From: Burkholderiales bacterium | Lineage (GTDB): Bacteria; Pseudomonadota; Gammaproteobacteria; Burkholderiales; Burkholderiaceae_C | Assembly (NCBI GenBank): GCA_017302655.1 | Contig: JAFLDE010000002.1 | Coordinates: 21,993-85,992, forward strand | Direction of reading: 5' to 3' | DNA length: 64,000 bases | In this document: one piece after another, positions 46,682-64,000 of the stretch | Numbering within the stretch: the first letter of the stretch is position 1 | Layout of the letters: every line of letters starts with the position of its first letter | The notes under the pieces: generated by a model | Seen by the model: the letters and a program-made list of their open reading frames with translations, nothing else | The model's database searches: none | Told to the model about the DNA's origin: nothing | Translations under genes and position numbers: made by a program

Positions 46682-47788
46682 TCACTCACCTGCCGCCGGC
46701 AATCCATTCGCCACGGCGTCGGCGATGGCAGCGCCCACCTGCGCACAACTGGCGCTGCCGCTGAGGTCGGGCGTGCGCGGCGCGCGGGGGTCGGACAGCA
46801 CCTGCTCGATGGCGGCCAGCACGGCGTCGTGCGCAGCGCGGTGGCCCAGGAAGTCCAGCATCATGGCGCCGGCCCAGATCTGCCCGATGGGGTTGGCGAT
46901 GCCCTTCCCTGCGATATCCGGGGCCGAACCATGCACCGGCTCGAACAGGCTGGGCCAGCGCCGCGTCGGGTTCAGGTTGGCCGAGGGCGCGATGGCGATG
47001 GTGCCGGTGCAAGCCGGCGCGAGGTCGGAGAGGATGTCTCCGAACAGATTGCTGCCCACCACCACATCGAAATGGCCGGGCCGCTGCACGAAATGCGCGC
47101 ACAGGATGTCGATGTGGAACTGCTCCACCGTCACATCCGGGTAGCGCGCGGCCATGGCCTGCACCCGCTCGTCCCAATAGGGCATGGTGATGGAGATGCC
47201 GTTGCTCTTCGTGGCCGAGGTGAGCTTGCGTCGCGGCCGACTGGCGGCGAGTTCAAAGGCGAAGGCCAGCACGCGATCCACGCCGACACGGCTCATCACC
47301 GTCTCCTGAATCACCAGTTCCCGCTCGGTGCCGGCGAACATGCGCCCGCCGATGCTGCTGTACTCGCCCTCGGTGTTCTCGCGCACGATCCACAGGTCGA
47401 TGTCGCCGGGCTTGAGCGGCTCTCCCTGGCGGTTCACCAGCGGCGAACGCACGCCCGGCAGCAGGCGGGCCGGGCGCAGGTTCACGTACTGGTCGAACTC
47501 GCGGCGGAACTGGAGCAGCGAGCCCCAGAGCGAGACATGGTCGGGCACCGTGGCCGGCCAGCCGACCGCACCGAAGTAGATCGCATCGTGCCCGCCGATC
47601 TGCGTCTTCCAGTCCGGCGGCAGCATGCTGCCGTGGCGCTCGAAGTAAGCGCAGTGGGCAAAGTCGAATTCGTCGAACTGCAGTGCCAAGCCGAAGCGCT
47701 GCGCGGCGGCACGGAGCACACGCAGGCCTTCGGGCATCACCTCCTGGCCGATGCCGTCGCCGGCGATCACGGCAATGCGCTGCGTCAT
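46682..47788 (-). CDS. Tartrate / D-malate dehydrogenase (decarboxylating), IDH/IMDH family
   Basis: IAVIAGDGIG.EV, HVSLWGSLL..RREFDQYVNLRP, VRENTEGEYS, TSATKSNG, SNLFGDILSDL, FEPVHGSAPDI; ATGA overlap at 47785-47788. Confidence 0.92.
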   Translation of the reverse strand: MTQRIAVIAGDGIGQEVMPEGLRVLRAAAQRFGLALQFDEFDFAHCAYFERHGSMLPPDWKTQIGGHDAIYFGAVGWPATVPDHVSLWGSLLQFRREFDQYVNLRPARLLPGVRSPLVNRQGEPLKPGDIDLWIVRENTEGEYSSIGGRMFAGTERELVIQETVMSRVGVDRVLAFAFELAASRPRRKLTSATKSNGISITMPYWDERVQAMAARYPDVTVEQFHIDILCAHFVQRPGHFDVVVGSNLFGDILSDLAPACTGTIAIAPSANLNPTRRWPSLFEPVHGSAPDIAGKGIANPIGQIWAGAMMLDFLGHRAAHDAVLAAIEQVLSDPRAPRTPDLSGSASCAQVGAAIADAVANGLPAAGE

Positions 47789-48672
47789 TCGGACTCCTCG
47801 TTGAAGAAGGGCAGCGCCTCGGCCAGCAGCGCCTCGGGGGCTTCCTCGGCGATGTAGTGGCCACAGTCCAGCGCGCGGCCGCTCACGTTCGTGGCCGCGG
47901 CCTGCCACAACGCCAGCGGGTCGAAGCACCTTGCCACCACACCCTTCGCGCCCCAGAGCACGCGCAAGGGTTGAACCAGCCGCCGGCCAGCCGCCCGGTC
48001 GGCGCGATCGTGTTCAAGGTCCACCCCGGCACTGGCGCGGTAGTCGCTGCAGATGGCCTGGGCACTGCCGGGGCGTGCGATGCAGCGCGCGTACTCGGCC
48101 CAGGCTTCCGGAGCGAAAGCGTCCGAGCCCGCCAGGCGTCGACCCACGCTTTCGCGCAGATAGGCCGCCGGGTCGGCCTCGATCAAGCGCTCGGGCAAAG
48201 GCGCCGGCTGAATGAGGAAGAACCAGTGCCAGTACGCCCGCGCGAAGGCCTCGCCGGTGGCCTCGTACATCGCCAGCGTGGGTGCGATGTCGAGCAGCAT
48301 GGCGCGCGAGACAGCATCGGGGTGGTCGAGCATCAGGCGGTGGGCCACGCGAGCGCCACGGTCGTGCGCCAGCACCGCAAAGCGCTCATGACCGAGGCTG
48401 CGCATCAGGTGCAAGGCATCTCGCGCCATCTCGCGCTTGCTGTAAGCCGCGTGCCCAGGTCCCGGCTCAGGTCGACCGCTGTCGCCATAGCCCCGCAGGT
48501 CCAGCAGGATGACGCGATGCTGCCGCGCCAAGCGCGGCGCCACGCGATGCCACATCGCCATGGTCTGCGGATGCCCATGCATCAGCAGCAGCGGCGACCC
48601 CGCGCCGCCTTGCCGCCACACCAGTTCCACGCCATCCCGTTGAAGGCGTCGGCGATCGAAGTCTTGCCACAT
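47785..48672 (-). CDS. Alpha/beta hydrolase, haloacetate (fluoroacetate) dehalogenase-like
   Basis: LLMHGHPQT, AHDRGARVAHRL (Asp nucleophile + 2 Arg), AYWHWFF, SDYRA, CGHYIAEE. Confidence 0.85.
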   Translation of the reverse strand: MWQDFDRRRLQRDGVELVWRQGGAGSPLLLMHGHPQTMAMWHRVAPRLARQHRVILLDLRGYGDSGRPEPGPGHAAYSKREMARDALHLMRSLGHERFAVLAHDRGARVAHRLMLDHPDAVSRAMLLDIAPTLAMYEATGEAFARAYWHWFFLIQPAPLPERLIEADPAAYLRESVGRRLAGSDAFAPEAWAEYARCIARPGSAQAICSDYRASAGVDLEHDRADRAAGRRLVQPLRVLWGAKGVVARCFDPLALWQAAATNVSGRALDCGHYIAEEAPEALLAEALPFFNEESE

Positions 48673-48766: not shown

Positions 48767-50173
48767 CTAGAACCACCAGGGTGCAGGATGACCGTTGCTG
48801 ACCAGGAATACCTGCTGTCGGTAAAAGCGCTGAATGCTCTGCGCGCCCATGCGGGTACCGCCAAGGCCGGACAGACCGAAGCTCTGCTTTGCGCCCTCAT
48901 GCACAAGCGCGGTGAGCGAGCAGTCGTTGATGGACACCGCGCCCGCCCGCAGGGCAGAGGCCACACGGCGGGCGCGTTCGACATCCGCACTGAAGACGGC
49001 GCCGCTGAGGCCGTACTCGCTGTCGTTGGCCAAATGCAAGGCCTCGGCTTCATCGGCGAACGCCTGCAGGGGAAGGATGGGACCGAAAGTCTCCTCGCGC
49101 ATGACACGCATGCTCGGCTTCACGTCCACCAGCACCGTCGGTTGGCACCAGATGCCGCCGCCGTGTTCAACGAGGCGCCCACCGCACAAGGCGCGGGCAC
49201 CCTGTGCAAAAGCGTCGTCAAGCTGCGCCTGAATCAGCCTTGCCTGAGCCGCTGCAATGACGGGACCGATGTGGCCCTCACGCGGGTCGGACGTGTTCAG
49301 GCCCAAAGCTGCTACCCGCTCGGTCAAGAGCTGGGCAAAGGCTTCAAAGACCGGCTGCTGCACGTAGCAGCGCTCCAGCGACATGCAGCTTTGCCCGGCA
49401 TTGACCATGCTGCCCCAAGCCAGCGATCGCGCGGTGCGTGGCAGGTCGGCGTCGGCAAAGACCAAGGCGGCGTCCTTGCCACCCAGTTCGAGCTGTGCCG
49501 GGATGAAGCGCCGCGCCGCCTGTTCGGCCACCTTGCGGCCGGTGGCCATGCTGCCGGTGAAGGCGATGGTGTCGACGCAGTCGATCAGGGCCTGACCGGT
49601 GGCGCCGGCACCGGTCACGAAGTCGATGGGCAGCTCGGACGTCAAGCCTGCCAAGCTGGCGCGCAGGGGTTCGACGAAGCGCGGCGTGATCTCGCTCGGC
49701 TTGACGAGCACCGCGCAGCCCGCCATCAAGGCCGGGATGGCGTCGATCAGGGAAAGCAGCAGCGGGAAGTTCCAAGGGCTGATGACGCCGACCAGCGGAT
49801 AGGGCTGCATGCCCTGCTCGATCGTGAGGAAGGGAATCGAGGCACGTTGCTGGCTCGGCGCCAGCAGGCCTGGCCCCTGGGAAGCCCAGCGCGCCAGGGA
49901 TGCGGCGCAGGCCTGGATCTCCAGCAAGCCTTCTTGCCAGCGGCCGGTGTCGGCCAGCAAGGCTTCGGCCAGAGCAGACTCCTGGCCCAGCAAGCGCTCG
50001 CGCCAGGCCAGCAGGGCCTCGGCTCGCTGTGGCGCCGTCCGCGCCGCCCACGCAGGCTGGCGTGCACGCAGTTGCGCGGCCACTGCAGCCACTTCTGTGG
50101 CGTCGTGCACAGGCATGAAGTGGTCCAGCCGGCCTGTGCGCGGATTGCGCGTGTTCGGCAGCGCCTCAGTCAC
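48767..50173 (-). CDS. NAD(P)+-dependent aldehyde dehydrogenase
   Basis: ISPWNFP, KPSEITP, FTGS, LELGGKD, GQSC, EETFGP. GTG start 50173 overlaps the upstream stop. Confidence 0.93.
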   Translation of the reverse strand: MTEALPNTRNPRTGRLDHFMPVHDATEVAAVAAQLRARQPAWAARTAPQRAEALLAWRERLLGQESALAEALLADTGRWQEGLLEIQACAASLARWASQGPGLLAPSQQRASIPFLTIEQGMQPYPLVGVISPWNFPLLLSLIDAIPALMAGCAVLVKPSEITPRFVEPLRASLAGLTSELPIDFVTGAGATGQALIDCVDTIAFTGSMATGRKVAEQAARRFIPAQLELGGKDAALVFADADLPRTARSLAWGSMVNAGQSCMSLERCYVQQPVFEAFAQLLTERVAALGLNTSDPREGHIGPVIAAAQARLIQAQLDDAFAQGARALCGGRLVEHGGGIWCQPTVLVDVKPSMRVMREETFGPILPLQAFADEAEALHLANDSEYGLSGAVFSADVERARRVASALRAGAVSINDCSLTALVHEGAKQSFGLSGLGGTRMGAQSIQRFYRQQVFLVSNGHPAPWWF

Positions 50174-51206
50174 GGCGAAGCACACCCCGCGTCAGCAGCT
50201 TCTCGATGCTGGCCCGCTGCTGCTCCAGGAAATGGGCGCGACCGGGAACCTGCAACTCACCATCCTTGAGCATGCTGTTCGGGCTGACCACGCTGTCCGC
50301 GTACTGCGCGGCGAACAACTCCAGGCGCTGGCGCGCCAGCAGATTGCCCATGCCCGGCTTGAGCCGCTGGCGGCGCAGGGCTGCGATGTCGATGACGGCG
50401 TGGGCGACCATGCTCTCACCATAGCCGGCCTCGGCCCGCACCTCGCCCAGGGGGTCGACGATCTTGCTCATGCCGTCCACGGACTCGCCGGGGATGTCCA
50501 CGTCGACGATGCCCGCCGAGTTGGCGCTCACCACCCAGCAACTGTTCTCGTAGGCACGCGCGCGCTTGGCCACATCCTTGGGGGTGAAGCGCGGGCTGGC
50601 CACTTCGGAACTGCTGTGCAGCAGCACCTCGGCACCGCGAAGCGCTAGGCCACGAGCAATCTCCGGGTAGAGGATTTCCTCGGACGCGACGCAGCCCAGG
50701 CGGCCGAGCGGCGTGTCAGCGACCGGGAAGACACCTTCGAGCCCGTACAGCTCCAGGTACCGGTCCCAGACATCGTGCGGCGTGGGCGCAAACAGCGAGA
50801 CCAGGCGGCGGTAGCGCAGCACGCAGGCGCCTTGGTCGTCCAGCACGAAGCTGGTCTGGAAGTAGAGACCGGGAAAGTGAGCGTCGGTCTCGTACACATT
50901 GCCACTGAGGTAGACACCCGCCTGCCTTGCGACCTGGCCGAGCAGCTCGTACTCGACCCCGTCGGGCGCCAACGCCGCCTTGCTCGCCCAAGCCGGCAAC
51001 GCGTCACCCAGCGGGTAGCCGCTCAGGAAGTACTCGGGCAGCACCACCAACTTCAGGTCGGGGCCGATGAAGGCCTTGGAGCCCAGCACCTGACGCCCCA
51101 CGCGTTCGATGTTGGCGCGCATGCGCTCCCGCGCCTCGGCGTCGCTGACACAACGGTTGACGGCGTGACACCGGGTTTGCAACGCGAGGGCGGTATAGGC
51201 GCTCAT
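50166..51206 (-). CDS. Nitrilase / carbon-nitrogen hydrolase fold protein with atypical triad
   Basis: VVLPEYFL; YFQTSFVLD; YRRL; GCVASEEILYPE.ARGLALRGAEVL; RARAYEN..WVVSAN. Confidence 0.82.
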   Translation of the reverse strand: MSAYTALALQTRCHAVNRCVSDAEARERMRANIERVGRQVLGSKAFIGPDLKLVVLPEYFLSGYPLGDALPAWASKAALAPDGVEYELLGQVARQAGVYLSGNVYETDAHFPGLYFQTSFVLDDQGACVLRYRRLVSLFAPTPHDVWDRYLELYGLEGVFPVADTPLGRLGCVASEEILYPEIARGLALRGAEVLLHSSSEVASPRFTPKDVAKRARAYENSCWVVSANSAGIVDVDIPGESVDGMSKIVDPLGEVRAEAGYGESMVAHAVIDIAALRRQRLKPGMGNLLARQRLELFAAQYADSVVSPNSMLKDGELQVPGRAHFLEQQRASIEKLLTRGVLRRD

Positions 51207-51209
51207 GGT

Positions 51210-51890
51210 TCAGAAGGGCTTGACGGCGCCAAAGTAGGCGACGGTGGCAATGGACACCCAGTACACATAAGCGATGTTGCGGCCGAAGCGGATGCTCTTG
51301 TCCAGCTTGGCCTCCACGTCGGCGTTGGGGCCCTGTGCCAGCAGGCGGAACATGGCCGTCCACTCCCGCATGATGAAGCGCAGCTTCAGGCCAATGATCA
51401 GCGTCCAGGCGTACACGAGCATCTTGGCCGCGTACCAACGCGTGCCCGGATCGGCCACCAGCGGGCCATGCCCCATCAAGGACGCGATGCTGACGAGGAA
51501 CAGCAGCGGGATCAGCACGAAGCGCACGCTCTCGTCGACCTTCGTCAGGCGAACGCCGGTGTCGGTCTCACGCTTGATGAAGGCGCCCCAGCACAGGCCC
51601 AGCCACAGCGCCGTGAGCACCCACATGCCAGTTAGCCAAGCGCCGCCCAGGGGCTGCAGATTCCACAAATGCCCCATGTGCAGGCCCAGGGGCAGCAGCA
51701 GGATGATGCCGGTGCGGGCCAGGATGTCGATGCGGTAGGCCGTCTCCATGTGGCGACGGCGCTCGTCCAGCGGCAGCTTGCGGTTGATGACGTTGTAGGA
51801 GGTCTGGAATACCCCCCACTCGCCACCCAACCAATAGACCATGCAGATGATGTGCAGCCAGCGCAGCACGGCGAGCTCGTTGAAGTCCAT
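51210..51890 (-). CDS. Uncharacterised multi-pass membrane protein
   Basis: About 6 hydrophobic helices (WLHIICMVYWLGG...), GAGAG RBS-like sequence, first gene after the leftward sigma54 promoter. Confidence 0.8.
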   Translation of the reverse strand: MDFNELAVLRWLHIICMVYWLGGEWGVFQTSYNVINRKLPLDERRRHMETAYRIDILARTGIILLLPLGLHMGHLWNLQPLGGAWLTGMWVLTALWLGLCWGAFIKRETDTGVRLTKVDESVRFVLIPLLFLVSIASLMGHGPLVADPGTRWYAAKMLVYAWTLIIGLKLRFIMREWTAMFRLLAQGPNADVEAKLDKSIRFGRNIAYVYWVSIATVAYFGAVKPF

Positions 51891-51922: not shown

Positions 51923-51938
51923 TGCAAGACCTGTGCCA
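51923..51938 (-). promoter_or_regulatory. Sigma54 -24/-12 promoter (leftward operon)
   Basis: Minus strand TGGCAC-AGGTC-TTGCA; GG-N10-GC spacing exact; 32 nt upstream of ATG 51890. Confidence 0.85.
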
Positions 51939-51957
51939 TTCGGTCGGCGGCCCTCGA

Positions 51958-52006
51958 TGTTTCAACATGGAACGCATCGGGCAGCATCTGAAACCGACTT
52001 GAAACA
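51958..52006. promoter_or_regulatory. Candidate enhancer (UAS) for a PrpR-like sigma54 activator
   Basis: Imperfect palindrome TGTTTCA-ACA-TGGAACG (51958-51974) plus TGAAAC (51989) and TGAAACA (52000) half-sites between the two sigma54 promoters. Confidence 0.5.
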
Positions 52007-52025
52007 CTCGGCGCAGCCCATCACT

Positions 52026-52041
52026 TGGCACGCCGATTGCA
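52026..52041 (+). promoter_or_regulatory. Sigma54 -24/-12 promoter (rightward operon)
   Basis: TGGCAC-GCCGA-TTGCA; GG-N10-GC exact; AGGAG RBS and ATG 52080 follow. Confidence 0.88.
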
Positions 52042-52079: not shown

Positions 52080-52967
52080 ATGCGCCCCCATGTGGAATTG
52101 ATCGACGAGAAGGACCTCATCTGGCACGTGGCCGAGTTGCCACATGGCGTGGGCGCGGCACGCCAGCGCCATCTGAACTACTGTGAAGAGAAGGGTGAGG
52201 CCTCGCTGTCCGTCGAGTTCACCAGCGACTGGAGCCGCCCGGCGGGCTGCCATGCGGCCCAGACCGAGTGGTTCGTCCTCGAAGGCGAACTCACGCTGGG
52301 CGAGCAGGCCATGACCAAGGACGACTACTTCATGGCGCCGGCCGGTGTGCTCACGCCGGCGCTGCATGTGAAGGCAGGCACCCGCGTGCTGCTCTTCCGC
52401 GAGTTCGGCGACTGGGGCTTCACGCCCGCCAGTCAGAGCGAAAAGGAGGGCGAATTGGTGGTCATGCGCGCCAGCCAGATGGCTTGGTTCGACATCACCG
52501 ATCCGCACAACGGCAGCCCGATGGACTTCAGCCGCGGCGGCACCCCGGTGCCAGGCCTGAGCATCAAGCTGCTGTATCACAACAAGCAGACGGGCTTCTA
52601 CACCCGGCTGATTCGCGCCAAGGCCGACTGGGTGGAGCATCCGCTGGCCCACCACCCCTGCTATGAAGAGGCCTACTGCCTGGATGGCAGCTTTGAGTAC
52701 AACTACGGCTCGATGTGGCCGGGCACCTACTTCTTCCGGCCGGCCGGCGTGCGTCACGGCGACTTCAAGAGCGGGCCCACCGGCACCACCTGGCTGCTGC
52801 GATGCGACGGCCGCCTGGTGGACTGGTACACCGAAGGCGCCCGCGTGGAAATGCAGGGCAAGGCGCTCAACTGGGGCCCGGAGTACCCCGGCACCGAGCC
52901 GCCCGTGCTGCTGCAACCGACCCGTAGCCGCTCGATCGGTCCGATGAAAGACCCGGCCTACCAGTGA
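52080..52967 (+). CDS. Bicupin protein (DUF4437 / ChrR-like)
   Basis: Two cupin barrels; EWFVLEGEL in the first, HHPCYEEAYCLDG and YFFRPAGVRHG in the second. Confidence 0.75.
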   Translation: MRPHVELIDEKDLIWHVAELPHGVGAARQRHLNYCEEKGEASLSVEFTSDWSRPAGCHAAQTEWFVLEGELTLGEQAMTKDDYFMAPAGVLTPALHVKAGTRVLLFREFGDWGFTPASQSEKEGELVVMRASQMAWFDITDPHNGSPMDFSRGGTPVPGLSIKLLYHNKQTGFYTRLIRAKADWVEHPLAHHPCYEEAYCLDGSFEYNYGSMWPGTYFFRPAGVRHGDFKSGPTGTTWLLRCDGRLVDWYTEGARVEMQGKALNWGPEYPGTEPPVLLQPTRSRSIGPMKDPAYQ

Positions 52968-53734
52968 TGCAGCCCAGTCACCGCGATGCACTGGGCTGGC
53001 GCCGCGTCTTCGCGGTGTTCGGCCCCAGCACCAACACCATCGTCGAGCCGGAGTTCGCCGCCATGCGACCGGCCGGCGTCACCAACCAGTACCGCGACCT
53101 GTACATCGAGAACGCCAAGGCGCTCAGCGACGAAGCCTTCATGGCCGGTGCCGAGTTGATCGACGCCGCCGTGGAGCAAGCGCTGCGCACCGCGATGACG
53201 GCCGAGCCCGACTACTACGTGATGGGTGTGTCGGCCATCAGCTTCATCGGCGGCGCGCCCGCCTGCGAGCGCCTGCTGCAGCGCATTCGCGACCTCACCG
53301 GCAAGGACGTGAGCGTCGGCTCGATGAGCTGCGTGGAGGCCATGAAGGCCTACGGCAACATCCGGCGCATCGCCGTGCTCTCGCCCTATTACCCGGCGGC
53401 CAACGCGCATGTGAAGCACTTCTTCAGCGACCACGGCTTGAGCACCGTGCGCGACCTGCCGCTTCGCTGCACCAGCTGGACGAACATCAGCCGCGTCACC
53501 GAGCGGCAGATCGCCGACGCGCTCAAGCAGCTCGACGGCGACGACATCGACGCCATCGTGCAGGTGGGCACCAACCTGCAGATGGCCCGCATGGCGCCCT
53601 ACGCCGAAGCCTTCCTGGGCAAGCCGGTGATCGCCATCAACACCGCCACCTACTGGCACGCGCTGCGCCGCAATGGCATCCGCGACGCCGTCGACGGCTT
53701 CGGCTCCCTGCTGCAACACATGGACCTGGCCTGA
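52967..53734 (+). CDS. Asp/Glu racemase superfamily protein (maleate isomerase / arylmalonate decarboxylase-like)
   Basis: GPSTNTIVEPEF, IAVLSPY, AIVQVGTNL, GKPVIAINTATYWHALR; TGATG overlap. Confidence 0.85.
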   Translation: MQPSHRDALGWRRVFAVFGPSTNTIVEPEFAAMRPAGVTNQYRDLYIENAKALSDEAFMAGAELIDAAVEQALRTAMTAEPDYYVMGVSAISFIGGAPACERLLQRIRDLTGKDVSVGSMSCVEAMKAYGNIRRIAVLSPYYPAANAHVKHFFSDHGLSTVRDLPLRCTSWTNISRVTERQIADALKQLDGDDIDAIVQVGTNLQMARMAPYAEAFLGKPVIAINTATYWHALRRNGIRDAVDGFGSLLQHMDLA

Positions 53735-53743
53735 CATGAATCG

Positions 53744-53877
53744 GCCCCTCGCCCAAACTCGCCGCGCTGAACGCGGGCGAGTCCGGTCGGTCCCCCAAGG
53801 GGACGCGCCTGCACGCGGCATGGAGCCGCAAGCAGGCGCAGGCGGGCCGGCTTGGGGCGGCCCGGCGCTCGGCCCGC
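53744..53877 (+). repeat. Palindromic repeat copy C (intergenic, longest)
   Basis: GCCCCTCGCCC...TCGGTCCCCCAAGGGGACGC + extra hairpin + GCGGGCCG-GCTTGGGGCGGCCCGGCGCT-CGGCCCGC. Confidence 0.8.
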
Positions 53878-53931
53878 AACGCCCCGTTTTCATGCGTCGC
53901 GGGTGCCGCGAATCTGCAATGGACAACTGAC

Positions 53932-54591
53932 ATGGAACAGAGCAACAAGACGGCACGCGAGATCTGGAACGAGCTGAAAGCCAACCCGACGCGCGCGCGC
54001 TTCGGCTTTGGCCTGAAGGCCGCGCTGGTCAACATCGACTTCCAGTGTGCCTACACAAGGGTTGATGAATTCAAGACCGCGTACGAAACCGATCCGCAGC
54101 AGATCCAGTACGTGAACCAGCTCGCGACTGCCTTCCGCGCCAAGGGCTGGCCGGTGGTCTGGACGCATGTTGCATATGCCGACTCGGGGGAGGACTGCGG
54201 CGTCTGGGGCACGCGGACGAACACGCCGGACTCGCTGCAGAACATCAAGCATGGCTCTCGCCGAGCCCAGTTCGACGAGCGCTGCGACATCCGGCACGGC
54301 CTCGACATGGTCTATTGCAAGCGAATGCCCTCGGTGTTCTTCGAAACGCCCCTGCACTCGCTCTTGACCTTTCATCGGGTGGACACCGTGGTGCTGACCG
54401 GCGGGTCCACCAGCGGCTGCGTGCGCGCCAGCGCGGTGGACTCCCTTTCGCGCAGCTTCCGCACCATCGTTCCTGAGCAGTGCGTGGCCGACAAGCACGA
54501 GAGCTATCACTTCGCCAACCTGACCGACATGCAGCTGAAGTACGCCGACGTGCTTGACGTTCAGCAGGTGCTGGACTGGCTGAAGGCCTGA
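53932..54591 (+). CDS. Isochorismatase-family cysteine amidohydrolase (NicF / N-carbamoylsarcosine amidase-like)
   Basis: NIDFQ (Asp), KRMPSVFFET (Lys), GGSTSGCVRASAVD (Cys). Confidence 0.9.
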   Translation: MEQSNKTAREIWNELKANPTRARFGFGLKAALVNIDFQCAYTRVDEFKTAYETDPQQIQYVNQLATAFRAKGWPVVWTHVAYADSGEDCGVWGTRTNTPDSLQNIKHGSRRAQFDERCDIRHGLDMVYCKRMPSVFFETPLHSLLTFHRVDTVVLTGGSTSGCVRASAVDSLSRSFRTIVPEQCVADKHESYHFANLTDMQLKYADVLDVQQVLDWLKA

Positions 54592-54595
54592 GCCC

Positions 54596-55480
54596 ATGAA
54601 AGCCGATCCAGGCGTCTACGCGCATCGGCCGTATCGGGGCCGACCCAAGATCGAATGGCCGGGTGGGAAGCGCGTCGCCTTCTGGGTAGCGCCCAACATC
54701 GAGTTCTACGAACTGCAGCCGCCCGCCAACCCGCATCGCGCGGCCTGGCCGCATCCCTACCCGGCCGTGCCCGGCTACAGCATCCGGGACTGGGGCAACC
54801 GTGTCGGCCACCAGCGTCAGATGGCCCTGCTCGACAAGTACGGTATCCGAGGCTCGATCTCGTTGAGCGCTGCCCTGTGCGAGCACCACCCCGAGATCAT
54901 TGCCATGTGCAAGGAGCGGGACTGGGAGTTCTTCAGCCACGGCATCTACAACACGCGCTACGTGTACGGCATGAGCGAGGCCGAGGAGCGGGCGATGCTG
55001 CTGGACTCGATGGACACCATCGAGCGTGCTTGTGGTCGCCGCCCGGCCGGATACCTGGCGCCGGCGCTTTCGCACAGCGAGGTCACGCTCGACCTGTTCG
55101 CCGAACTAGGCGGGCTCTACACCTGCGACCTGTTCCACGACGACCAGCCGACGGCCGTGGACGTGCGCGGCGGGCAGCGCTTCTGCTCCGTGCCGTACTC
55201 GCTGGAATTGAACGACACGATTGCCTACGTGGTGAACAAGGTCGAGCCGCGTCGCTACGGCCAGATGATCTGTGACGCCTTCGACCAGCTGCGCCTGGAA
55301 GGCGGCACGGTGATGTGCATCCCCACGCACAACTACCAGGTGGCGAATCCGCATCGGCTGGCTGCCTTTGAGCGGGCGCTGGACTACATCACGTCGCATG
55401 ACGATGTTTGGGTCACGACGGGGCGTGAGATTGCTGAGTGGTACTTGGCTTCGTCTGCCGAAGCTGGAGAGTTGAAGTGA
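54596..55480 (+). CDS. Polysaccharide-deacetylase-fold hydrolase (PuuE allantoinase-like) 1
   Basis: WPGGKRVAFWVAPNIEFY, DWGNRVG, WEFFSHG, GYLAPA, DDQP, VPYSLELND, CDAFDQL. Confidence 0.88.
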   Translation: MKADPGVYAHRPYRGRPKIEWPGGKRVAFWVAPNIEFYELQPPANPHRAAWPHPYPAVPGYSIRDWGNRVGHQRQMALLDKYGIRGSISLSAALCEHHPEIIAMCKERDWEFFSHGIYNTRYVYGMSEAEERAMLLDSMDTIERACGRRPAGYLAPALSHSEVTLDLFAELGGLYTCDLFHDDQPTAVDVRGGQRFCSVPYSLELNDTIAYVVNKVEPRRYGQMICDAFDQLRLEGGTVMCIPTHNYQVANPHRLAAFERALDYITSHDDVWVTTGREIAEWYLASSAEAGELK

Positions 55481-55538
55481 GAGCCCTTGGGGCGCTTCGC
55501 CCCCAAATCCCCGCGGGCTCTTGCATAGGGAGCACTCC

Positions 55539-56435
55539 ATGAGCCAACCGCCCTACCCCATGCGCCGCTACGGCATGGACCACGAGCGCTACACGTGGTC
55601 CATGCTCCAGGACCGGCCGCCCATCCAATGGCCCGGCGGCAAGCCGCTGGCGGTCTGGATCAACGTTTCACTCCAGCACTTCCCGCTGAACCCGGCGGCC
55701 AAGGTCAAGCTGCCCGGCAGCATGACCATGCCGTATCCCGACCTGCGCCACTTCACGCTTCGCGACCACGGCAACCGGGTCGGCATCTGGCGATTGCTGT
55801 CGGAGCTGGACCAGGCCCAACTCCCCGCCAGCTTCGCCATGAACGCCGAGCTGGTGCTGCGCGCGCCCGAGCTGCTGGCCGAGATCCGCCAGCGCGGCGC
55901 CGAGCTCATCGGCCACAGCTGGAACATGGACACCCCGCATGCGGGCTCCCTGGACAACGAACGAGCGCTCATCCAGCGCAGCCTGGAGCATCTTGGCGGC
56001 GGCATCAGCACCTGGCTCAGCCCCGGCCGCCTGCAAACCGCGCACACCCCCGAGTTGCTCCGCGAACAGGGCATCACCGCCTGCGCCGACTGGGTGAACG
56101 ACGAACTGCCCTACCGCTTTCACACGCAGCAGGGCGATTTGTGGAACCTGCCCCTGCCCACCGAGACCGAGGATCGCTTCGTCATCCTCGACAACCTGCA
56201 CAGCGAAGCCAGCTGGGCCGAGCAGGTCATCGACGCCTTCGAGTTCCAGCTCGCCGAGGCCCGGGCCGCTCATGCCGGGCGGCTCTTCAGCCTCTCGCTG
56301 CATCCCTGGGTGACCGGCCAGGCGCACCGCGTCAAGCACCTGCGCCGCGTGCTCGCGCACATCGCCGCGGCGCGTGCTGATTGCTGGTTCTGCATGCCGC
56401 GCGATCTCGTCCAGCACATGGAATCCCTCGCGTGA
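55539..56435 (+). CDS. Polysaccharide-deacetylase-fold hydrolase (PuuE allantoinase-like) 2
   Basis: WPGGKPLAVWIN, RDHGNRVGIWRL, ELIGHSW, WLSPG, DWVNDELP, LSLHPWVTGQAHR; GGGAG RBS before ATG 55539. Confidence 0.88.
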   Translation: MSQPPYPMRRYGMDHERYTWSMLQDRPPIQWPGGKPLAVWINVSLQHFPLNPAAKVKLPGSMTMPYPDLRHFTLRDHGNRVGIWRLLSELDQAQLPASFAMNAELVLRAPELLAEIRQRGAELIGHSWNMDTPHAGSLDNERALIQRSLEHLGGGISTWLSPGRLQTAHTPELLREQGITACADWVNDELPYRFHTQQGDLWNLPLPTETEDRFVILDNLHSEASWAEQVIDAFEFQLAEARAAHAGRLFSLSLHPWVTGQAHRVKHLRRVLAHIAAARADCWFCMPRDLVQHMESLA

Positions 56436-57337
56436 TCCTCGTCTCCGAAGTCGGTCCGCGCGACGGACTGCAGTCCATTTCCACCGTGATGCCCACGGCG
56501 GCCAAGTTCGCGTGGATCGACGCCCTGGTTGCTGCAGGCGTTCGCGAGATCGAAGTCGGCTCCTTCGTGCCGGCCAAGCTCTTGCCGCAGCTGGCCGACA
56601 CCGCCGACGTGGTCGCGCATGCACGCCGGCATGCAGGCCTCACCGTGGCCGTGCTCGTGCCCAATGCGAAGGGCGCCGAGGCGGCGCTTGCTGCGGGTGC
56701 CCACAAGCTCACCCTGCCGCTGTCCTGCAGCGAGACGCATAGCCTGAAGAACCTGCGCAAGACCCACGCCCAGGTGCTGGACGAAGCACGTGCCATCGCC
56801 GCCCTGATCGCTGCGCAGCCCATCGGTCAACGCCCGCACTTCGAGGGCAGCCTGTCCACCGCCTTCGGTTGCACGCTGGAAGGCAGCGTGCCCGAAGCCC
56901 AGGTGCTGCGTTTGGGCGAGGCGCTGCTGAAAGCCGGCTGCGACGAGGTCGGCCTAGCCGACACCACCGGCTACGCCAACCCCACCCAGGTGCGCCGCCT
57001 GATCCGCCAGCTCTGGGACGCACTGGGGCAAGACAAGCTCACAGGCATCCACCTGCACAACACGCGTGGGCTGGGCCTGGCCAATGCCTTGGCCGCGCTG
57101 GACACGGGCCTGAGCACCTTCGACAGCAGCCAGGCCGGCCTGGGCGGCTGCCCCTTCGCGCCGGGCGCCAGCGGCAACATCGTCACCGAGGACCTGGTCT
57201 TCATGCTGCAGAGCATGGGCCTGGACACCGGCATCGACTTCGACCGCCTCATGCAGGCGCGCCAGGTGCTGGCGGCCGCGCTTCCCGGTGAGCCGCTCTA
57301 CGGCATGACCCCGCAGGCAGGACTTCCCAAGCCATGA
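56432..57337 (+). CDS. HMG-CoA lyase family (DRE-TIM) acyl-CoA lyase
   Basis: EVGPRDGLQ, IEVGSFV, LADTTG, HLHNTRGLG, GGCPFAPGASGNIVTED; GTGA overlap. Confidence 0.92.
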   Translation: MILVSEVGPRDGLQSISTVMPTAAKFAWIDALVAAGVREIEVGSFVPAKLLPQLADTADVVAHARRHAGLTVAVLVPNAKGAEAALAAGAHKLTLPLSCSETHSLKNLRKTHAQVLDEARAIAALIAAQPIGQRPHFEGSLSTAFGCTLEGSVPEAQVLRLGEALLKAGCDEVGLADTTGYANPTQVRRLIRQLWDALGQDKLTGIHLHNTRGLGLANALAALDTGLSTFDSSQAGLGGCPFAPGASGNIVTEDLVFMLQSMGLDTGIDFDRLMQARQVLAAALPGEPLYGMTPQAGLPKP

Positions 57338-58479
57338 CACCCTTGCAAGGCCTCAAGGTCATCGAGTTCACCCACATGGTGATGGGCCCGAGCATGGGCC
57401 TCATCCTGGCCGATCTCGGGGCCGAGGTGCTGAAGATCGAACCGCCGGGCGGCGACAACACGCGGCGCCTGACCGGCTCGGGCGCCGGCTACTTCGCCAT
57501 GTACAACCGCAACAAGGCCAGCCTGCAATTGGACCTGAAGACCGAAGCCGGCAAGGCGGCGGCGCTGGCCCTGATCGACGGCGCCGACATCGTCATCGAG
57601 AACTTCCGTCCCGGCGGCATGGCCGCGCAGGGCCTCGGGTACGAGCAGTTGTCGGCGCGCAATTCCGGCCTCATCTACTGCAGCGGCAAGGGCTTTCTGT
57701 CCGGTCCCTACGCCCACCGCACCGCGCTCGACGAAGTGGCGCAAATGATGGGCGGGCTGGCCTACATGACCGGTCTGCCTGAGCGCCCGATGCGGGCCGG
57801 CGCGTCGGTGATCGACGTGGGGGGCGCGATGTTCGGCGTCATCGGCATCCTGGCCGCGCTGCACGAGCGCCAGCGCACCGGCCGTGGCCAGGCCATCACC
57901 ACCTCGCTGTATGAGACCTGCGCCTTCTTCGTCGGCCAGCACATGGCGCAAACCGCAGCCACCGGCGAAGCGCCACCGCCGATGTCGGTGCGCCGGTCCG
58001 CCTGGGCGGTGTACGACGTGTTTGACTGCGCCGACCCCGGCGAGAAGGTCTTCGTGGGCGTGGTCAGCGACACGCAGTGGCGCGTGTTCTGCGAGGCCTT
58101 CGCGCTGCCCGAGCTGGCCGCCGATGCCAGCCTGGCGCAGAACAACGAGCGTGTGCGACAGCGCGAGCGCATCCTGCCGCTCATCCAGGCACGCTTCGCT
58201 CAGCTGACCAAGGCCGAGCTGATGGCCAAGCTGGAACACAGCGGCCTGCCCTTTGCCCCGGTGGCCAAGCCGGCGCAACTGTTCGACGACCCGCAGCTCC
58301 GGGCCGGCGGCCTGCTGCCCATCACCCTGCCGGGCGGCCAGCGCACCGCGCTGCCGGCACTGCCGCTGGAGATGAACGGCCAGCGTGGGCAGCTTCGCCA
58401 CGACCTGCCCGCCCCAGGCGACGGCGGCGACGCCTGGCTGCGCGCGGCCGGCATCGACCCCGACTCGGTGCGTTGCTGA
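57334..58479 (+). CDS. Family III (CaiB/BaiF) CoA-transferase
   Basis: GPSMGLILADLGAEVLKIEPPGGD, NRNKASL.LDLK, ENFRPG, ALDEVAQ, LHERQRTGRGQ. Confidence 0.93.
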   Translation: MTPLQGLKVIEFTHMVMGPSMGLILADLGAEVLKIEPPGGDNTRRLTGSGAGYFAMYNRNKASLQLDLKTEAGKAAALALIDGADIVIENFRPGGMAAQGLGYEQLSARNSGLIYCSGKGFLSGPYAHRTALDEVAQMMGGLAYMTGLPERPMRAGASVIDVGGAMFGVIGILAALHERQRTGRGQAITTSLYETCAFFVGQHMAQTAATGEAPPPMSVRRSAWAVYDVFDCADPGEKVFVGVVSDTQWRVFCEAFALPELAADASLAQNNERVRQRERILPLIQARFAQLTKAELMAKLEHSGLPFAPVAKPAQLFDDPQLRAGGLLPITLPGGQRTALPALPLEMNGQRGQLRHDLPAPGDGGDAWLRAAGIDPDSVRC

Positions 58480-59870
58480 TGGTGGCGCCGCAGAGCCTGT
58501 TCGACAAGCTCTGGCAGGGCCGGCGGGTGGCCAGCCTGCCCGGCGGCAGCGACCTGCTGCATATCGACCGCGTGATGCTGCACGAACGCACCGGCGGCGT
58601 GGCATTGGCCGCGTTGGCATCACGCGGCCTGAAGCCGCGCCGGCCCCGCCAGGCCTTCGCCACCTTCGACCACATCGTCGACACCTTTCCGGGCCGGGGG
58701 GACCAGACCCTGATGCCCACCGGCCAGGCCTTCATCACCACCACGCGACGCGAGGCACGGGCCGCCGGCATCCAACTCATCGACCTGCCCGACCCCCGCC
58801 AGGGCATCGTGCACGTCATCTCGCCGGAACTGGGCATCGTGCTGCCCGGCGCCACGCTGGTCTGTCCGGACAGCCACACCTGCACGCAGGGCGCTTTTGG
58901 CGCGCTGGCCTGGGGCATCGGCTCCAGCGAAGCCGAGCACGCGTTGGCCACTGGTGCCTTGCGTGTGCGCCGACCGCCCAGCATGCGCGTGTCCTTCAGC
59001 GGCCGCCTGCCCAAGGGCAGCACGGCCAAGGACATGGCGCTGGCGCTGATAGCCCGCCACGGCGCCGGCGGTGGCCAGCGCTGCGCCATCGAGTTCGCCG
59101 GCGAGGCGGTTCGCGCGCTCGGCATCGAGGCGCGGCAGACCCTGTGCAATCTCGCCGTCGAATTCAGTGCCTGGGGCGCCTGCATCGCGCCGGATGACAC
59201 CGTCTTCGGCGCACTGCACGGCAAGGCCTTCGCCCCTCAAGGTGCCGCCTGGGAAGCCGCCCTGCCGCATTGGCGCCGCCTGGCCAGCGACGCGGACGCG
59301 TCCTTTGACCACGAACTGAGCCTGGACGTGAGCCGCCTGGCTCCGCAGTTGAGCTGGGGCACCAGCCCTGGCCATGGGGGCGACATCGACGCAGCCGTGC
59401 CAGCGCCACGTGACGACAGCGAACGGGCCGCCCTGGACTACATGGGCATCGAGCCCGGCCGCCCCCTGCTCGGCCTGCCCATCCAGGCCGCTTTCATCGG
59501 CTCCTGCACCAATGCCCGCCTGAGCGACCTGCGTGCCGCCGCCGCCCTGCTTCGCGGTCGGCGCATCGCGCCGGGCGTGCGTGCGCTGTGCGTGCCGGGC
59601 TCGGGCAGCGTCAAGCGCGCGGCCGAAGCCGAGGGGCTGCACGAGGTCTTCCAGGCCGCGGGTTTCGAGTGGCGCGAGGCTGGCTGCTCGCTGTGCTTCC
59701 ATGCCGGCGGCGAGCGCTTCGAAGCGCAGTGGCGCGTGGCCTCCACCACCAACCGCAACTTCGAAGGGCGCCAAGGGCCTGGTGTGCGCACGCACCTGGC
59801 CAGCCCCATCACCGTGGCGGCCAGCGCACTGGCGGGCTGTCTGGCAGATCCCCGCCCCCTGCTGCCATGA
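58479..59870 (+). CDS. LeuC-like [4Fe-4S] hydro-lyase large subunit
   Basis: GIVHVISPE, CPDSHTCTQGAFG, GIGSSE, FIGSCTNAR, GCSLC, STTNRNFEGRQG; TGATG overlap. Confidence 0.92.
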   Translation: MVAPQSLFDKLWQGRRVASLPGGSDLLHIDRVMLHERTGGVALAALASRGLKPRRPRQAFATFDHIVDTFPGRGDQTLMPTGQAFITTTRREARAAGIQLIDLPDPRQGIVHVISPELGIVLPGATLVCPDSHTCTQGAFGALAWGIGSSEAEHALATGALRVRRPPSMRVSFSGRLPKGSTAKDMALALIARHGAGGGQRCAIEFAGEAVRALGIEARQTLCNLAVEFSAWGACIAPDDTVFGALHGKAFAPQGAAWEAALPHWRRLASDADASFDHELSLDVSRLAPQLSWGTSPGHGGDIDAAVPAPRDDSERAALDYMGIEPGRPLLGLPIQAAFIGSCTNARLSDLRAAAALLRGRRIAPGVRALCVPGSGSVKRAAEAEGLHEVFQAAGFEWREAGCSLCFHAGGERFEAQWRVASTTNRNFEGRQGPGVRTHLASPITVAASALAGCLADPRPLLP

Positions 59871-60454
59871 ACCCGCCCTTCCACCAGCACGAGGGCCTGG
59901 CCGTGGGCCTGCTGCGCGACCACATCGACACCGACGCCATCATCCCGTCGCGCGAAATGAAGGGTGTGGGCAAGACCGGGCTGGCCGAAGGTCTGTTCGC
60001 CAACTGGCGCTACCGCGACCCGGCCACGCGCGAGCCCGAGCCCGGCTTCGTGCTCAACCAGCATCCGCAGGCGAGCATCCTGCTGGCCGGTCGCAACTTT
60101 GGCTGCGGCTCCTCGCGAGAACACGCCGTCTGGGCGCTGAAGGAATGGGGCATCCGCGTGGTCATCGCACCCAGCTTCGGCGCGATCTTTTTCGACAACT
60201 GCATCCGCAACGGCCTGCTGCCCCTGGTGCTCACCGCGCCGCTGGCCACGCCCCAGCGCCTTCGCATCGACCTGGACGCGCTCACCGTGCAGGAAGCCGA
60301 CGGCAGCCTGCACCGTTTCAGCCTGGACGACGAGCCGCGCGACCTGCTGCGCAGCGGCCTGGACCCGGTGGCCCTGACCCTGGCCCAACAGGGCGATGCC
60401 CTGGCCGCGTTCGAAGCCCATGACCGCCAGCAGCAACCCTGGCTCTACCTGTGA
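59867..60454 (+). CDS. LeuD-like hydro-lyase small subunit
   Basis: IDTDAIIP, NFGCGSSREHAVWAL, APSFGAIFFDNCIRNGLLP. Confidence 0.92.
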   Translation: MNPPFHQHEGLAVGLLRDHIDTDAIIPSREMKGVGKTGLAEGLFANWRYRDPATREPEPGFVLNQHPQASILLAGRNFGCGSSREHAVWALKEWGIRVVIAPSFGAIFFDNCIRNGLLPLVLTAPLATPQRLRIDLDALTVQEADGSLHRFSLDDEPRDLLRSGLDPVALTLAQQGDALAAFEAHDRQQQPWLYL

Positions 60455-61305
60455 CTGCCCTCGCCCCCGGCTTGAATCGCCCGCACATCGAGTTCCTGCA
60501 AGCCCAGCACCTGCCCTGGCGTCGCCTGCCGCCTGGCGCAGCGCGGCCCGATGCGCAGTACAAGTTCCTGAGCCGCGACGCCGCCACAGGCGCCTGCAGC
60601 TGCCTGATCCGCTACCCCAAGGGCTGGATGCGCGAGGGCGACGAAACCCTGGCCGTGGCCGAGACGGTCTACGTGCTCGAAGGATGTTTCGAGGTGGACG
60701 GCCACCCAATGAGGGCTGATCACTTCGGCCACTGGCCCGCCGGTTGTGCCCGCCAAAGCCTGAAGGCGCCCGAGGGCGCGGTGGTGCTGAGCTTCTTCGA
60801 TGCTGCCCCTGAGTTCGGCCCTGTCGACCCCGCCGCACAGCCCCTGCTGACCGACGTGCTGCACATGGCGTGGGACATGAAGCTCAACGACCCCAAGCTG
60901 GCGCACCTGGGTTTGGCTCGCAAGAACCTGCTGGCCGGCGCGGATGGTTCGCGCACCTTTCTCTCCATGATGCTTCCGCACGCCGAGCCGCTGGGCTCAC
61001 GTGGACCGCGCGAGAGCCATCCGGTCGTCGAGGAGTGCTACGTGCTGGCCGGTTCGCTGGTCGGTCCGCACGGCGAGATGCAGGCAGGGGCCTACTTCTG
61101 GCGCCCGCCCGGCATTCCCCATGGCCCCTTCGGCACCCGCTGGGGCTGCGTGGCGCTGATTCGCTTCCTGGGTGGCAACCATGTGAACGTGTGGAGCGAA
61201 GACGAAGCCCCGTTTCGCTTCGACGCTCCCTACGCGCCGGTGCTGCCCGCTGAGTTGGAAGGGCTGCGCGCCTTGGGGGCGGTGGAAGGCGCGCCAAGAT
61301 ATTGA
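60451..61305 (+). CDS. Second bicupin protein (DUF4437 / ChrR-like)
   Basis: SCLIRYPKGW, ETVYVLEG, SHPVVEECYVLAG, YFWRPPGIPHGPF; paralogous to 52080-52967. Confidence 0.75.
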   Translation: MTALAPGLNRPHIEFLQAQHLPWRRLPPGAARPDAQYKFLSRDAATGACSCLIRYPKGWMREGDETLAVAETVYVLEGCFEVDGHPMRADHFGHWPAGCARQSLKAPEGAVVLSFFDAAPEFGPVDPAAQPLLTDVLHMAWDMKLNDPKLAHLGLARKNLLAGADGSRTFLSMMLPHAEPLGSRGPRESHPVVEECYVLAGSLVGPHGEMQAGAYFWRPPGIPHGPFGTRWGCVALIRFLGGNHVNVWSEDEAPFRFDAPYAPVLPAELEGLRALGAVEGAPRY

Positions 61306-62142: not shown

Positions 62143-64000
62143 TCAAGCATCTCCCTCTCGTAGGCGCCGCCAAAGCGTCGTTCGGCTCACGCCCAGCAAC
62201 TGCGCCGCCAATTGACGGTTGCCCCCGGTGCGACGAAGGGCTTCCTGGATGGCGGCGTCACTGGGCAAGCCGCTGAGCGAGAGCGGAGCGTCTGGCGGGT
62301 GGCTGGCCTCTGCAGCGATGCTCCCCTGCAGCGGTGGCGCCTCGGACGCACGCAGCTCCGGCGCTTCCAGCAGAAATTGCTGCACGTCGATGCCCCCCAA
62401 CTCGCGCGCGCCGCTGACGAAGACGGCAAAACGCTCCATCAGGTTCTCCAACTCGCGGATGTTGCCCGGCCAGCGGTAGGCCAGCAGAGTGGGCAGCAAG
62501 GGCTCGAGCAGGCGGCGGCCCTGGGCCGCCTGGCCCAGTTCGCGCAGCTTGGCGTCGAGCAAGTGGGCGGCCAAAAGCGGCAGGTCGGCCCCACGCTCGC
62601 GCAAAGGGGGCAGCGCGATGTGCAGGATGTTGAGGCGGTAGTAGAGGTCGGCGCGGAAGCTGCCTTCGGCGATGCGCTCCGTCAGGCGCTGATGGGTGGC
62701 GGCGATGACGCGCACGTCGATCTGCACCGGTTGATGCGAGCCCAGGCGCACCACCTCGCGTTCCTGCAGCACACGCAGCAGGCGGGTCTGCAGGCTGATC
62801 GGCATGTCGCCGATCTCATCGAGGAACACAGTGCCGGTATGCGCGGCCTCGAAGAGACCCGGCTTGCCGCCTTTGCGGGAGCCCGTGAAGGCGCCTTCCT
62901 CGTAGCCGAACAACTCGCTCTCGAGCAGGCTCTCAGGGAAGCTGGCGCAGTTCAAGGCCACGAAGGGGCCAGCGCGGCGCGCGCTCTCGTTGTGGATGGC
63001 CTGGGCGAAGAGTTCCTTGCCGGTGCCGGTTTCTCCGGTGATGAGCACGGTGCTGTGCGTGGCGGCACAGCGCTTGGCCACCTGCCGGGCAAAGGCCAGC
63101 GGTGCGCTGCTGCCGGCGATGCCGTCGAAGCGGTGGCGCGCCGCGCGGCTTTGCGTGCGGCGCTGGGCCCGGATGGCCGAGTCGGCACGCTGGATGGCGG
63201 CGGTCTCGCGCAAGGTGATGAGCGCACCGGTGAGCAGGCCCCGCTCGCGCAGGCTGCTGCGATTCATCAGATAGGTGCCGCGCCGCAAAGCCAGCACGAC
63301 TTCGTCCGGACCTTCGTCGACCTGGCCCGCCAGCACGGCGGCCAGACTCAGCTCCTGCGCCACATCGGGCAGGCGCTGGCCGATCACGTCCCGGTCCTGC
63401 AGGTCCAGGATACGGCGCATCAAGGGATTCAGCGCCGTGATGCGGTGCTGGGTGTCCACCGCCAGGATGGCTTCGTGCAGGTGCGACAGCACGGTGTTGA
63501 GTTGCTCGAAGCGAGCGGCCTGGCGCAGCACGTTCTCGCCCAATTCCACGGCCTTCTCCAGCGCCCGCTCCACCGACGCGGCGGTGTAGTACAGGACGCC
63601 CCGCAAGCCCAATTGCTCCGCAATGCCGACGATGAGGCTGGAGCCCACCACCACCTGGATGCCCTGGTCGCGCAGCCGGAGCACGCATTCGCGCGCTTCG
63701 GCCAGCGTGGTGTAGCTGAGTTGCTCCAGGTCCACCTGCAACAGGCCGCGCACCGGCTCCAGTTCGCGGATGCTGCCGGCGTACACCACCAGACCGAAGC
63801 GACGGCTGATGCCACTGGCGGACTTGAAGGCGTTCAGCAGATCGAAGCCGGTGACCTCGATGCTGGCCACCGGCAGGTCCACCTGCGAGCGCAGCACGGC
63901 GGCGTTGTAGCCGGCACTGACCAGCACATCCACTTGCCCCTGCTGCTGCAGTTGGCGGCCGCGGAACACTGCGTCGTCCAGCACGTACTCGTCCACGGCG
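62143..64000 (-). CDS. prpR: PrpR-family sigma54-dependent activator (5' end truncated)
   Basis: PrpR_N-like domain (VLVSAGYN...EVTGFDLL), [45 protein letters not shown], Fis HTH ([12 protein letters not shown]). Confidence 0.8.

Follow-up and report, generated by a model that had tools for sequence, protein, structure and literature searches.

The window analysed here, a stretch of 64,000 nucleotides (positions 21,993 to 85,992 of contig JAFLDE010000002.1, our contig C112) from a near-complete 4.4 Mb Burkholderiales genome (99.96% complete), with the closest named homologues in Paucibacter and Roseateles, encodes on its plus strand an acyl-CoA lyase of the 3-hydroxy-3-methylglutaryl-CoA (HMG-CoA) lyase family, a family III CoA-transferase, and the large and small subunits of a LeuCD-type member of the aconitase family (Table 1). 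All four open reading frames are intact, the successive junctions are overlaps of 4, 1 and 4 nucleotides, and the GC content at third codon positions (0.86-0.91) is comparable to that of a housekeeping gene in the same window. The four genes are thus real and coupled, as was maintained in an earlier note on this DNA, which read them as a route from citraconate via (R)-citramalate to pyruvate and acetyl-CoA. However, the coupling extends beyond them on either side: the stop of the PuuE-like gene located 5' overlaps the start of the lyase gene (GTGA), and the start of the DUF4437 cupin gene located 3' overlaps the LeuD stop, so that the four-gene limits truncate a longer operon (52080-61305). 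This operon consists of ten genes, namely those for a cupin, an isomerase-fold protein, an amidase, two PuuE-like proteins, the lyase, the transferase, LeuC, LeuD and a second cupin. The four genes are not leucine genes but make up the lower section of a catabolic cluster with a wide distribution, whose imide/amide hydrolases upstream and probable uptake operon with bilin-family genes downstream had been overlooked.

The core enzymes and their active sites

In the lyase, Arg10 and Asp11, His207 and His209, and Cys240 are present, so that the DRE, HxH and GCP motifs are all recognizable, and the top PDB matches are HMG-CoA lyases; no (R)-citramalyl-CoA lyase model is found among its NCBIfam matches. 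The CoA-transferase reaches no named equivalog (the best NCBIfam model, succinate-glutarate CoA-transferase, yields 230 of 750 bits), and its alignment to PDB 4ED9 spans the region of the catalytic Asp. The LeuC-type subunit scores 484 bits with the TIGR00170 leuC model, below the cut-off of 560. Its Fe-S cysteines 343, 403 and 406, the Asp-His pairs and both arginines of NRNF..R are intact, which, together with the GSSRE motif of the small subunit, amounts to the full set expected of a two-subunit hydro-lyase of the aconitase superfamily (for the roles of these residues, see PMC8184944, PMC7308503). Given this retention of the Fe-S cysteines and catalytic motifs, the LeuCD paralogue should be an active Fe-S hydro-lyase.

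So what kind of substrate could this enzyme accept? In the LeuC clade to which the window protein belongs, HERT replaces HEVT (the canonical HEVTSPQAF is absent) and CFxAGG replaces CLxMN; in the LeuD partners, PSREM replaces PKQFL clade-wide in the recognition loop, which governs substrate specificity in this family (PMC7308503). At the position of Arg37 of the window LeuC, Arg is found in 120 of the 120 top homologues, whereas mitochondrial aconitase has Ala74, homoaconitase Gly, canonical LeuC Val and MJ0499, an isopropylmalate/citramalate isomerase, Ile at this site, and the clade shows further conserved changes in the pocket. This position, we assume, adjoins the binding site of the third substituent, and an Arg there suggests a substrate with a polar or anionic side chain rather than a methyl or alkyl one. 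The expectation in the earlier note of a substituted upstream substrate holds, whereas the methyl or alkyl substituent that it predicted appears to suit the pocket poorly; the same Arg, in place of the Ile of MJ0499 or the Val of LeuC, along with the other pocket changes, speaks against a physiological role in converting citraconate into (R)-citramalate.

Table 1. Features of the locus (positions in the window unless a contig or locus is named)
Feature	Position	Strand	Evidence
Tartrate/D-malate dehydrogenase	46682..47788	-	TIGR02089 526 bits vs cut-off 470; likely start ATG at 47788
Divergent operon: unknown membrane protein, nitrilase-family amidase, aldehyde dehydrogenase	48767..51890	-	Recurs with the module
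Back-to-back sigma54-type promoters and PrpR-like boxes	51924..52040	.	Conserved in JuS9 and G100
DUF4437 double cupin, operon gene 1	52080..52967	+	PF14499 2e-33
Arylmalonate-decarboxylase/maleate-isomerase-fold protein without catalytic cysteines	52964..53734	+	PF17645
Isochorismatase-family cysteine amidase	53932..54591	+	PF00857; Asp36-Lys130-Cys163
PuuE-like (CE4) cyclic-amide hydrolase, candidate 1	54596..55480	+	PF01522; TIGR03212 PuuE 111 bits, far below cut-off
PuuE-like hydrolase, candidate 2	55539..56435	+	Profile matches; stop overlaps lyase start
HMG-CoA-lyase-family (DRE-TIM) acyl-CoA lyase	56432..57337	+	PF00682 4e-49; PRK05692 296 bits vs cut-off 246
Family III CoA-transferase	57334..58479	+	PF02515 5e-111
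LeuC-type aconitase-family large subunit	58479..59870	+	PF00330; PRK12466 636 vs 531 bits
LeuD-type small subunit	59867..60454	+	PF00694; TIGR00171 176 bits; GSSRE intact
Second DUF4437-like cupin, coupled to LeuD	60451..61305	+	Profile match and overlap
PrpR-type sigma54 activator, truncated by the window end	62143..64000	-	TIGR02329 526 bits vs cut-off 499
Right-hand operon: TonB receptor, two CpeT-family lipoproteins, DUF1838, second CoA-transferase, lyase, amidase, major facilitator superfamily transporter; then integrase	C112:86141-95300; L081:4142-13320

Distribution of the cluster and its separation from leucine genes

Relatives of the window LeuC, at 56-74% identity, are found in alpha-, beta- and gammaproteobacteria, and the LeuC paralogue clade (52 rows) lies on one side of a branch with a support of 99; its frequency is about 1-2% of the sampled genomes in both the family and the phylum. 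When the genes within 10 kb of LeuC were counted in 37 clade loci and in 51 loci of other LeuC homologues, 33 of the former contained the orthologous CoA-transferase and 27 the orthologous lyase, and the amidase and the two PuuE-like genes were each present in 17; none of these genes was found in the controls. The order and orientation of the module genes differ between loci. The linkage of these genes is beyond chance.

Homologues of these genes carry the database names 3-isopropylmalate dehydratase and HMG-CoA lyase, which is what might be expected if the module were a second isomerase of leucine biosynthesis next to HMG-CoA lyase genes of leucine degradation. This role is rejected, being exceedingly improbable in view of the TIGR00170 score, the replaced motifs and the presence elsewhere in the genome of a canonical leuC-leuD-leuB set (contig C119), which passes the TIGR00170/00171/00169 cut-offs, and of a better-scoring HMG-CoA lyase (439 bits) downstream of a biotin carboxylase (contig C120). 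Furthermore, there is no leuB near the window module, as already observed in the earlier note, and a LeuB-like match adjoins clade LeuC in 0/37 loci as against 22/51 controls. The outcome that the earlier note had named as fatal to its proposal, namely that the module is the only isopropylmalate isomerase of the genome, is likewise excluded by the set on C119. A third fragment of the LeuD-like or aconitase C-terminal type (C142:32870-33026) is cut by a contig end.

A 42-kb version of the cluster is located beside an integrase on two sphingomonad plasmids and contains additional genes, namely those for a second LeuCD pair and its isocitrate-lyase-family lyase, for a PrpD-family protein and for a hydantoinase/oxoprolinase pair. 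The plasmids pJE1 (L121, 2554-35311) and pTomTYG65b (L122/L126) carry near-identical mobile copies with two LeuCD pairs each, and the second LeuCD next to its isocitrate-lyase-family lyase resembles dimethylmaleate metabolism. At L134:8221-9231 (genome G522), clade LeuC contains an in-frame TAG stop in a cluster that is otherwise intact. In genome G100 (L117:16253-18626), the CoA-transferase is missing between the lyase and LeuC and a second transferase is retained, which suggests that the two transferases can substitute for each other.

In the earlier note, the tartrate/D-malate dehydrogenase encoded in the window was enlisted to handle the unsubstituted product. This tie is weak: no tartrate/D-malate dehydrogenase was detected in any of the 37 flanked clade loci or beside the otherwise identical operon of Paucibacter JuS9, and G049 is the single other genome in which an ortholog is located close to the module. 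A role of the enzyme as a core partner is accordingly not supported, G049 being the one exception, and it is probably peripheral to the module; its gene is coupled to that of an alpha/beta hydrolase (47785-48672).

A candidate pathway and the provenance of its substrate

The families, the motifs and the synteny are all in agreement with the general scheme in the earlier note, that is, hydration by LeuCD followed by CoA transfer and HMG-CoA-lyase-type cleavage outside leucine metabolism, and this logic, although we infer the individual reactions, is highly probable. The [4Fe-4S] LeuCD paralogue would hydrate a substituted maleate to the corresponding malate, the hydroxyl of which would be tertiary, the family III transferase would form the CoA ester, and the HMG-CoA-lyase-type enzyme would cleave this ester to a 2-oxoacid and an acyl-CoA. 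In the two preceding steps, the PuuE-like pair would open a substituted maleimide to the maleamate, from which the cysteine amidase would free ammonia to yield the 2,3-disubstituted maleate; an imide or amide origin of the substrate is likely. The nearest solved relatives of the amidase, at about one third identity, are PDB 4L07/4L08 (E 1e-28) and 3OT4/3UAO, which we take to be maleamate amidases, and its Asp-Lys-Cys triad makes it maleamate-amidase-like at the family level only. The isomerase-fold protein is devoid of the two cysteines of a maleate cis-trans isomerase, with Gly at both sites that are presumably occupied by the catalytic cysteines in this family; its gene also recurs with the cluster.

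By analogy, the module might work like HbzIJ or DmdAB joined to the transferase and lyase of the Chloroflexus citramalate system. Like the LeuCD enzyme MJ0499 (PDB 4KP1) and HbzIJ, which we take to be the maleate hydratase of the gentisate pathway, the window LeuCD is a two-subunit member of the aconitase family with three Fe-S cysteines and GSSRE, for which anti-hydration of a cis-enedioate is expected; unlike either of these (HbzIJ being compared by description), it belongs to a HERT/CFxAGG/PSREM clade of its own, is not accompanied by leuB or gentisate genes and is coupled to a CoA-transferase and a lyase. Chloroflexus employs a succinyl-CoA:(R)-citramalate CoA-transferase and an (R)-citramalyl-CoA lyase, and thus shares with the module a family III transferase and HMG-CoA-lyase-family cleavage of a 3-hydroxyacyl-CoA, but, comparing by description, only the module includes a LeuCD partner, and its substrate is probably larger. 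In the nicotinate fermentation of Eubacterium barkeri, dimethylmaleate hydratase DmdAB and 2,3-dimethylmalate lyase similarly combine LeuCD-type hydration of a 2,3-disubstituted maleate with C-C cleavage to pyruvate, whereas the module would cleave via a CoA ester, is found in aerobic proteobacteria and is preceded by imide/amide hydrolases. The maleamate pathway of nicotinate and nicotine degradation (NicF, Ami; PDB 3UAO, 4L07) also involves an isochorismatase-family Asp-Lys-Cys amidase, but here there is no active maleate isomerase, neither NicX nor NicD was seen, and the acid would be hydrated rather than isomerised. Finally, the itaconate/methylsuccinate cluster Ict-Ich-Ccl resembles the module in CoA transfer, hydration and cleavage to pyruvate and an acyl-CoA but differs in that Ich and Ccl belong to other families and hydration acts on the CoA ester; the Ict-Ich-Ccl cluster did not support growth on citraconate or (R)-citramalate (PMC12290011, PMC9875883).

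The most likely source for such a substrate would be linear tetrapyrroles from the debris of chlorophyll, haem or phycobilins, taken up via the operon with the TonB receptor, CpeT and DUF1838 genes and contributing their pyrrole rings. Maleimides with methyl substituents and hematinic acid are the end products when haem, bilins and chlorophyll are broken down oxidatively, and both hematinic acid and maleimides have been detected in leaves and lake sediments (PMC7318184, PMC10343206). The best candidate for the hydratase would be ring-opened hematinic acid, that is, 2-methyl-cis-homoaconitate, and the products would be either pyruvate and glutaryl-CoA or 2-oxoglutarate and propionyl-CoA, depending on which carbon is hydroxylated; the genome encodes a methylmalonyl-CoA mutase that could serve the propionyl-CoA branch. 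Rings bearing vinyl or ethyl groups could fall to the second lyase module and, in the larger clusters, to the additional hydratase. A substrate derived from hematinic acid would account for the Arg pocket, the PrpR-type sensor, the imide/amide hydrolases and the bilin-family neighbours. Our preferred but tentative interpretation is that the module processes the carbon skeleton at the end of a pathway that degrades a tetrapyrrole-derived nitrogen-ring compound, a scheme in which we infer every reaction and the substrate; the tetrapyrrole origin as such is a serious possibility, to be held with reserve, and hematinate as the specific substrate is doubtful.

Regulation is compatible with this hypothesis. 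The PrpR-type activator accounts for the single PrpR_N match genome-wide. The pattern of sigma54-type promoters and PrpR-like boxes is expected by chance about 1.3 times per 30 kb, and the divergent pair sits at the same place in three genomes; promoter-like sequence resembling this pair also precedes the operon to the right of the window. PrpR responds to 2-methylcitrate, so that a methylated tricarboxylate would be a fitting inducer. The proposed substrate would be the one-carbon-longer homologue of 2-methyl-cis-aconitate, and a PrpR-type regulator is shared with the methylcitrate cycle (PrpR, PrpB, PrpD, AcnD); unlike organisms with this cycle, the near-complete genome contains no PrpB over the cut-off (best 96 bits versus 354).

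The right-hand operon probably belongs to the same regulon and serves uptake. The two CpeT-family proteins, both with lipoprotein-like leaders, match PF06206 and contain the YRQR motif of the CpeT/CpcT bilin-lyase family; their genes, the only ones of this family in the genome, begin about 7 kb past the leuC of the module, and the order of the right-hand genes is the same in JuS9. The second lyase, right of the regulator, is 44% identical to the module lyase. In six further genomes, CpeT-like genes lie 0.2-35 kb from clade LeuC, and in two partly overlapping random samples of 300 and 400 genomes, four of six CpeT carriers (one with a broken LeuC copy) held clade LeuC, against about 10 clade-LeuC genomes overall. 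DUF1838 is present in 22/37 clade genomes versus 3/200 controls, and a DUF1838 homologue chosen regardless of LeuC adjoins a LeuC of the HERT type; the predicted fold is a barrel that resembles BFA1, nitrobindin and CpeS at middling scores (VIA), and a Foldseek search with DUF1838 was uninformative. Furthermore, a neighbour from marine gammaproteobacteria that has no Pfam match is predicted (pLDDT 94) to fold like red chlorophyll catabolite reductase and the ferredoxin-dependent bilin reductases (E 2.7e-11, TM 0.75), and its gene is found in 8/37 clade genomes versus 0/200 controls. PDB sequence searches with the first CpeT protein and with the reductase-fold protein yielded nothing significant. 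HbpS-like, DUF3598-like and HapK genes likewise recur near the module. The reductase-fold family (251 aa; L029:19538-20356, with members also in L023, L024 and L026-L028) has more than 1,500 homologues, and two to three related copies occur in Azotimanducaceae-type and Halieaceae genomes.

Several observations weigh against a tetrapyrrole source. Only 4 of the 34 clade genomes tested gave a Pfam CpeT match, the family being undetectable in most; three of the four genomes with both CpeT and LeuC belong to one family, so that the counts are not independent and, the genomes being related, Fisher tests overstate the association. The DUF1838 barrel is of a generic calycin-like kind (best Z 8.7), a middling score that counts only as compatible with such a source. 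Seven of the eight genomes with the reductase-fold gene are close kin, and the gene is absent from the window genome, in which neither a haem oxygenase nor a bilin reductase was found; no obvious ring-fragmenting oxygenase is encoded within the window, and clusters of the short type are devoid of any bilin-family gene. PrpR-type control was observed in no more than a few Burkholderiales, most relatives having GntR-type regulators. The placement of Arg37 towards the substrate side chain is suggested by alignment.

Could the ring be of a different kind? The same lower chemistry might serve another N-heterocycle (for instance a pyridine, a pyrrolidone, or an indole-type or different cyclic imide or lactam bearing a polar side chain), in which case the CpeT, DUF3598 and reductase-fold proteins would be barrels recruited for different ligands. 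Relatives possess enzymes that are characteristic of heterocycle breakdown (FAD monooxygenases, molybdenum hydroxylases, hydantoinase/oxoprolinase pairs), the short versions with a TctC transporter contain no bilin-family genes, and CpcT homologues in non-photosynthetic organisms are uncharacterised (PMC2327270); nevertheless, the recurrence near the module of three families that include tetrapyrrole-binding members (CpeT, the ferredoxin-dependent bilin reductase fold and HbpS-like proteins) along with HapK, and the match between two-hydratase versions and two ring types, make this alternative less likely than a tetrapyrrole source, though it is a serious rival. Another alternative would be citraconate or a simple alkylmaleate, converted via (R)-citramalate and its CoA ester to pyruvate and acetyl-CoA, with the D-malate dehydrogenase in charge of unsubstituted maleate. 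Canonical LeuCD hydrates citraconate already, so that a dedicated Arg-pocket paralogue is unnecessary for this purpose. The enzyme families do fit, methylmaleimide is a pigment fragment too, a dehydrogenase ortholog occurs in G049, and the existence of a maleate hydratase HbzIJ is indicated by a title cited in PMC12294151. Against this stand a pocket and recognition loops unlike those of the citraconate-hydrating isopropylmalate isomerase-type enzymes, the rarity of the dehydrogenase near the module, and the lack of gentisate or maleylpyruvate genes among the annotated neighbourhoods: it is markedly unlikely that citraconate accounts for the existence of the clade, although it may serve as a side substrate.

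A variant methylcitrate, aconitate or homocitrate route, in which a common tricarboxylic acid such as 2-methylcitrate from propionate is consumed under PrpR control, independently of the amide hydrolases, would benefit from the regulator score above the PrpR equivalog cut-off, from the missing PrpB, from an Arg37 that suits a third carboxylate, and from the PrpD-family and isocitrate-lyase-family genes of the larger clusters. Such a route is nevertheless very improbable given that a methylmalonyl-CoA mutase is available for propionate in this genome, that no methylcitrate-synthase-like gene is found in any annotated neighbourhood, and that the operon also includes the amidase and PuuE-like genes, with an overlap between one of these and the start of the lyase gene.

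Significance and other features of the window

A literature search that covered few subscription papers revealed no account of the cluster, of the functions of DUF1838 or DUF4437, or of bacteria growing on bilins by way of maleimides, and no description of bacterial genes for the mineralisation of maleimide or hematinic acid fragments. The chemistry itself is a variant of known reactions, and the pathway would be undescribed if it serves tetrapyrrole debris. Quite possibly, we are dealing with the first genetic route for uptake and combustion of linear-tetrapyrrole or maleimide pyrrole carbon by heterotrophic bacteria, with a new Arg-pocket aconitase clade and exported CpeT-like proteins that bind or release bilins. 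Chlorophyll turnover is on the scale of 10^12 kg per year (PMC7318184). Should the hypothesis hold, the cluster would name the missing enzymes for mineralising pigment maleimides and hematinic acid, provide functions for DUF4437, DUF1838, non-cyanobacterial CpeT and the Pfam-less reductase-fold family, and define a new specificity class within the aconitase family; hematinic acid is readily made from haem, so that the pigment idea is directly testable. Whatever the source compound, a clade present in about 1-2% of the sampled genomes of proteobacteria bears erroneous leucine-gene annotations.

Among the remaining genes, the nitrilase-family protein of the divergent operon (50166-51206, minus strand), at 49-75% identity, is conserved with the cluster and has Ser at the nucleophile position. 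The 226-aa membrane protein of the same operon (51210-51890, minus strand), without a Pfam match, accompanies the cluster in many genomes; the candidate identification as a HemJ homologue was rejected, given that the HemJ model matches only a different gene and the Atlas returned unnamed clusters. A solitary phage-tail-sheath-like gene (45167-46651, minus strand) lies beside the left end of the cluster, and farther to the left, 39991-42891 (minus strand) encodes a secreted repeat protein of 966 aa with a C-terminal PEP-CTERM-like sorting motif.

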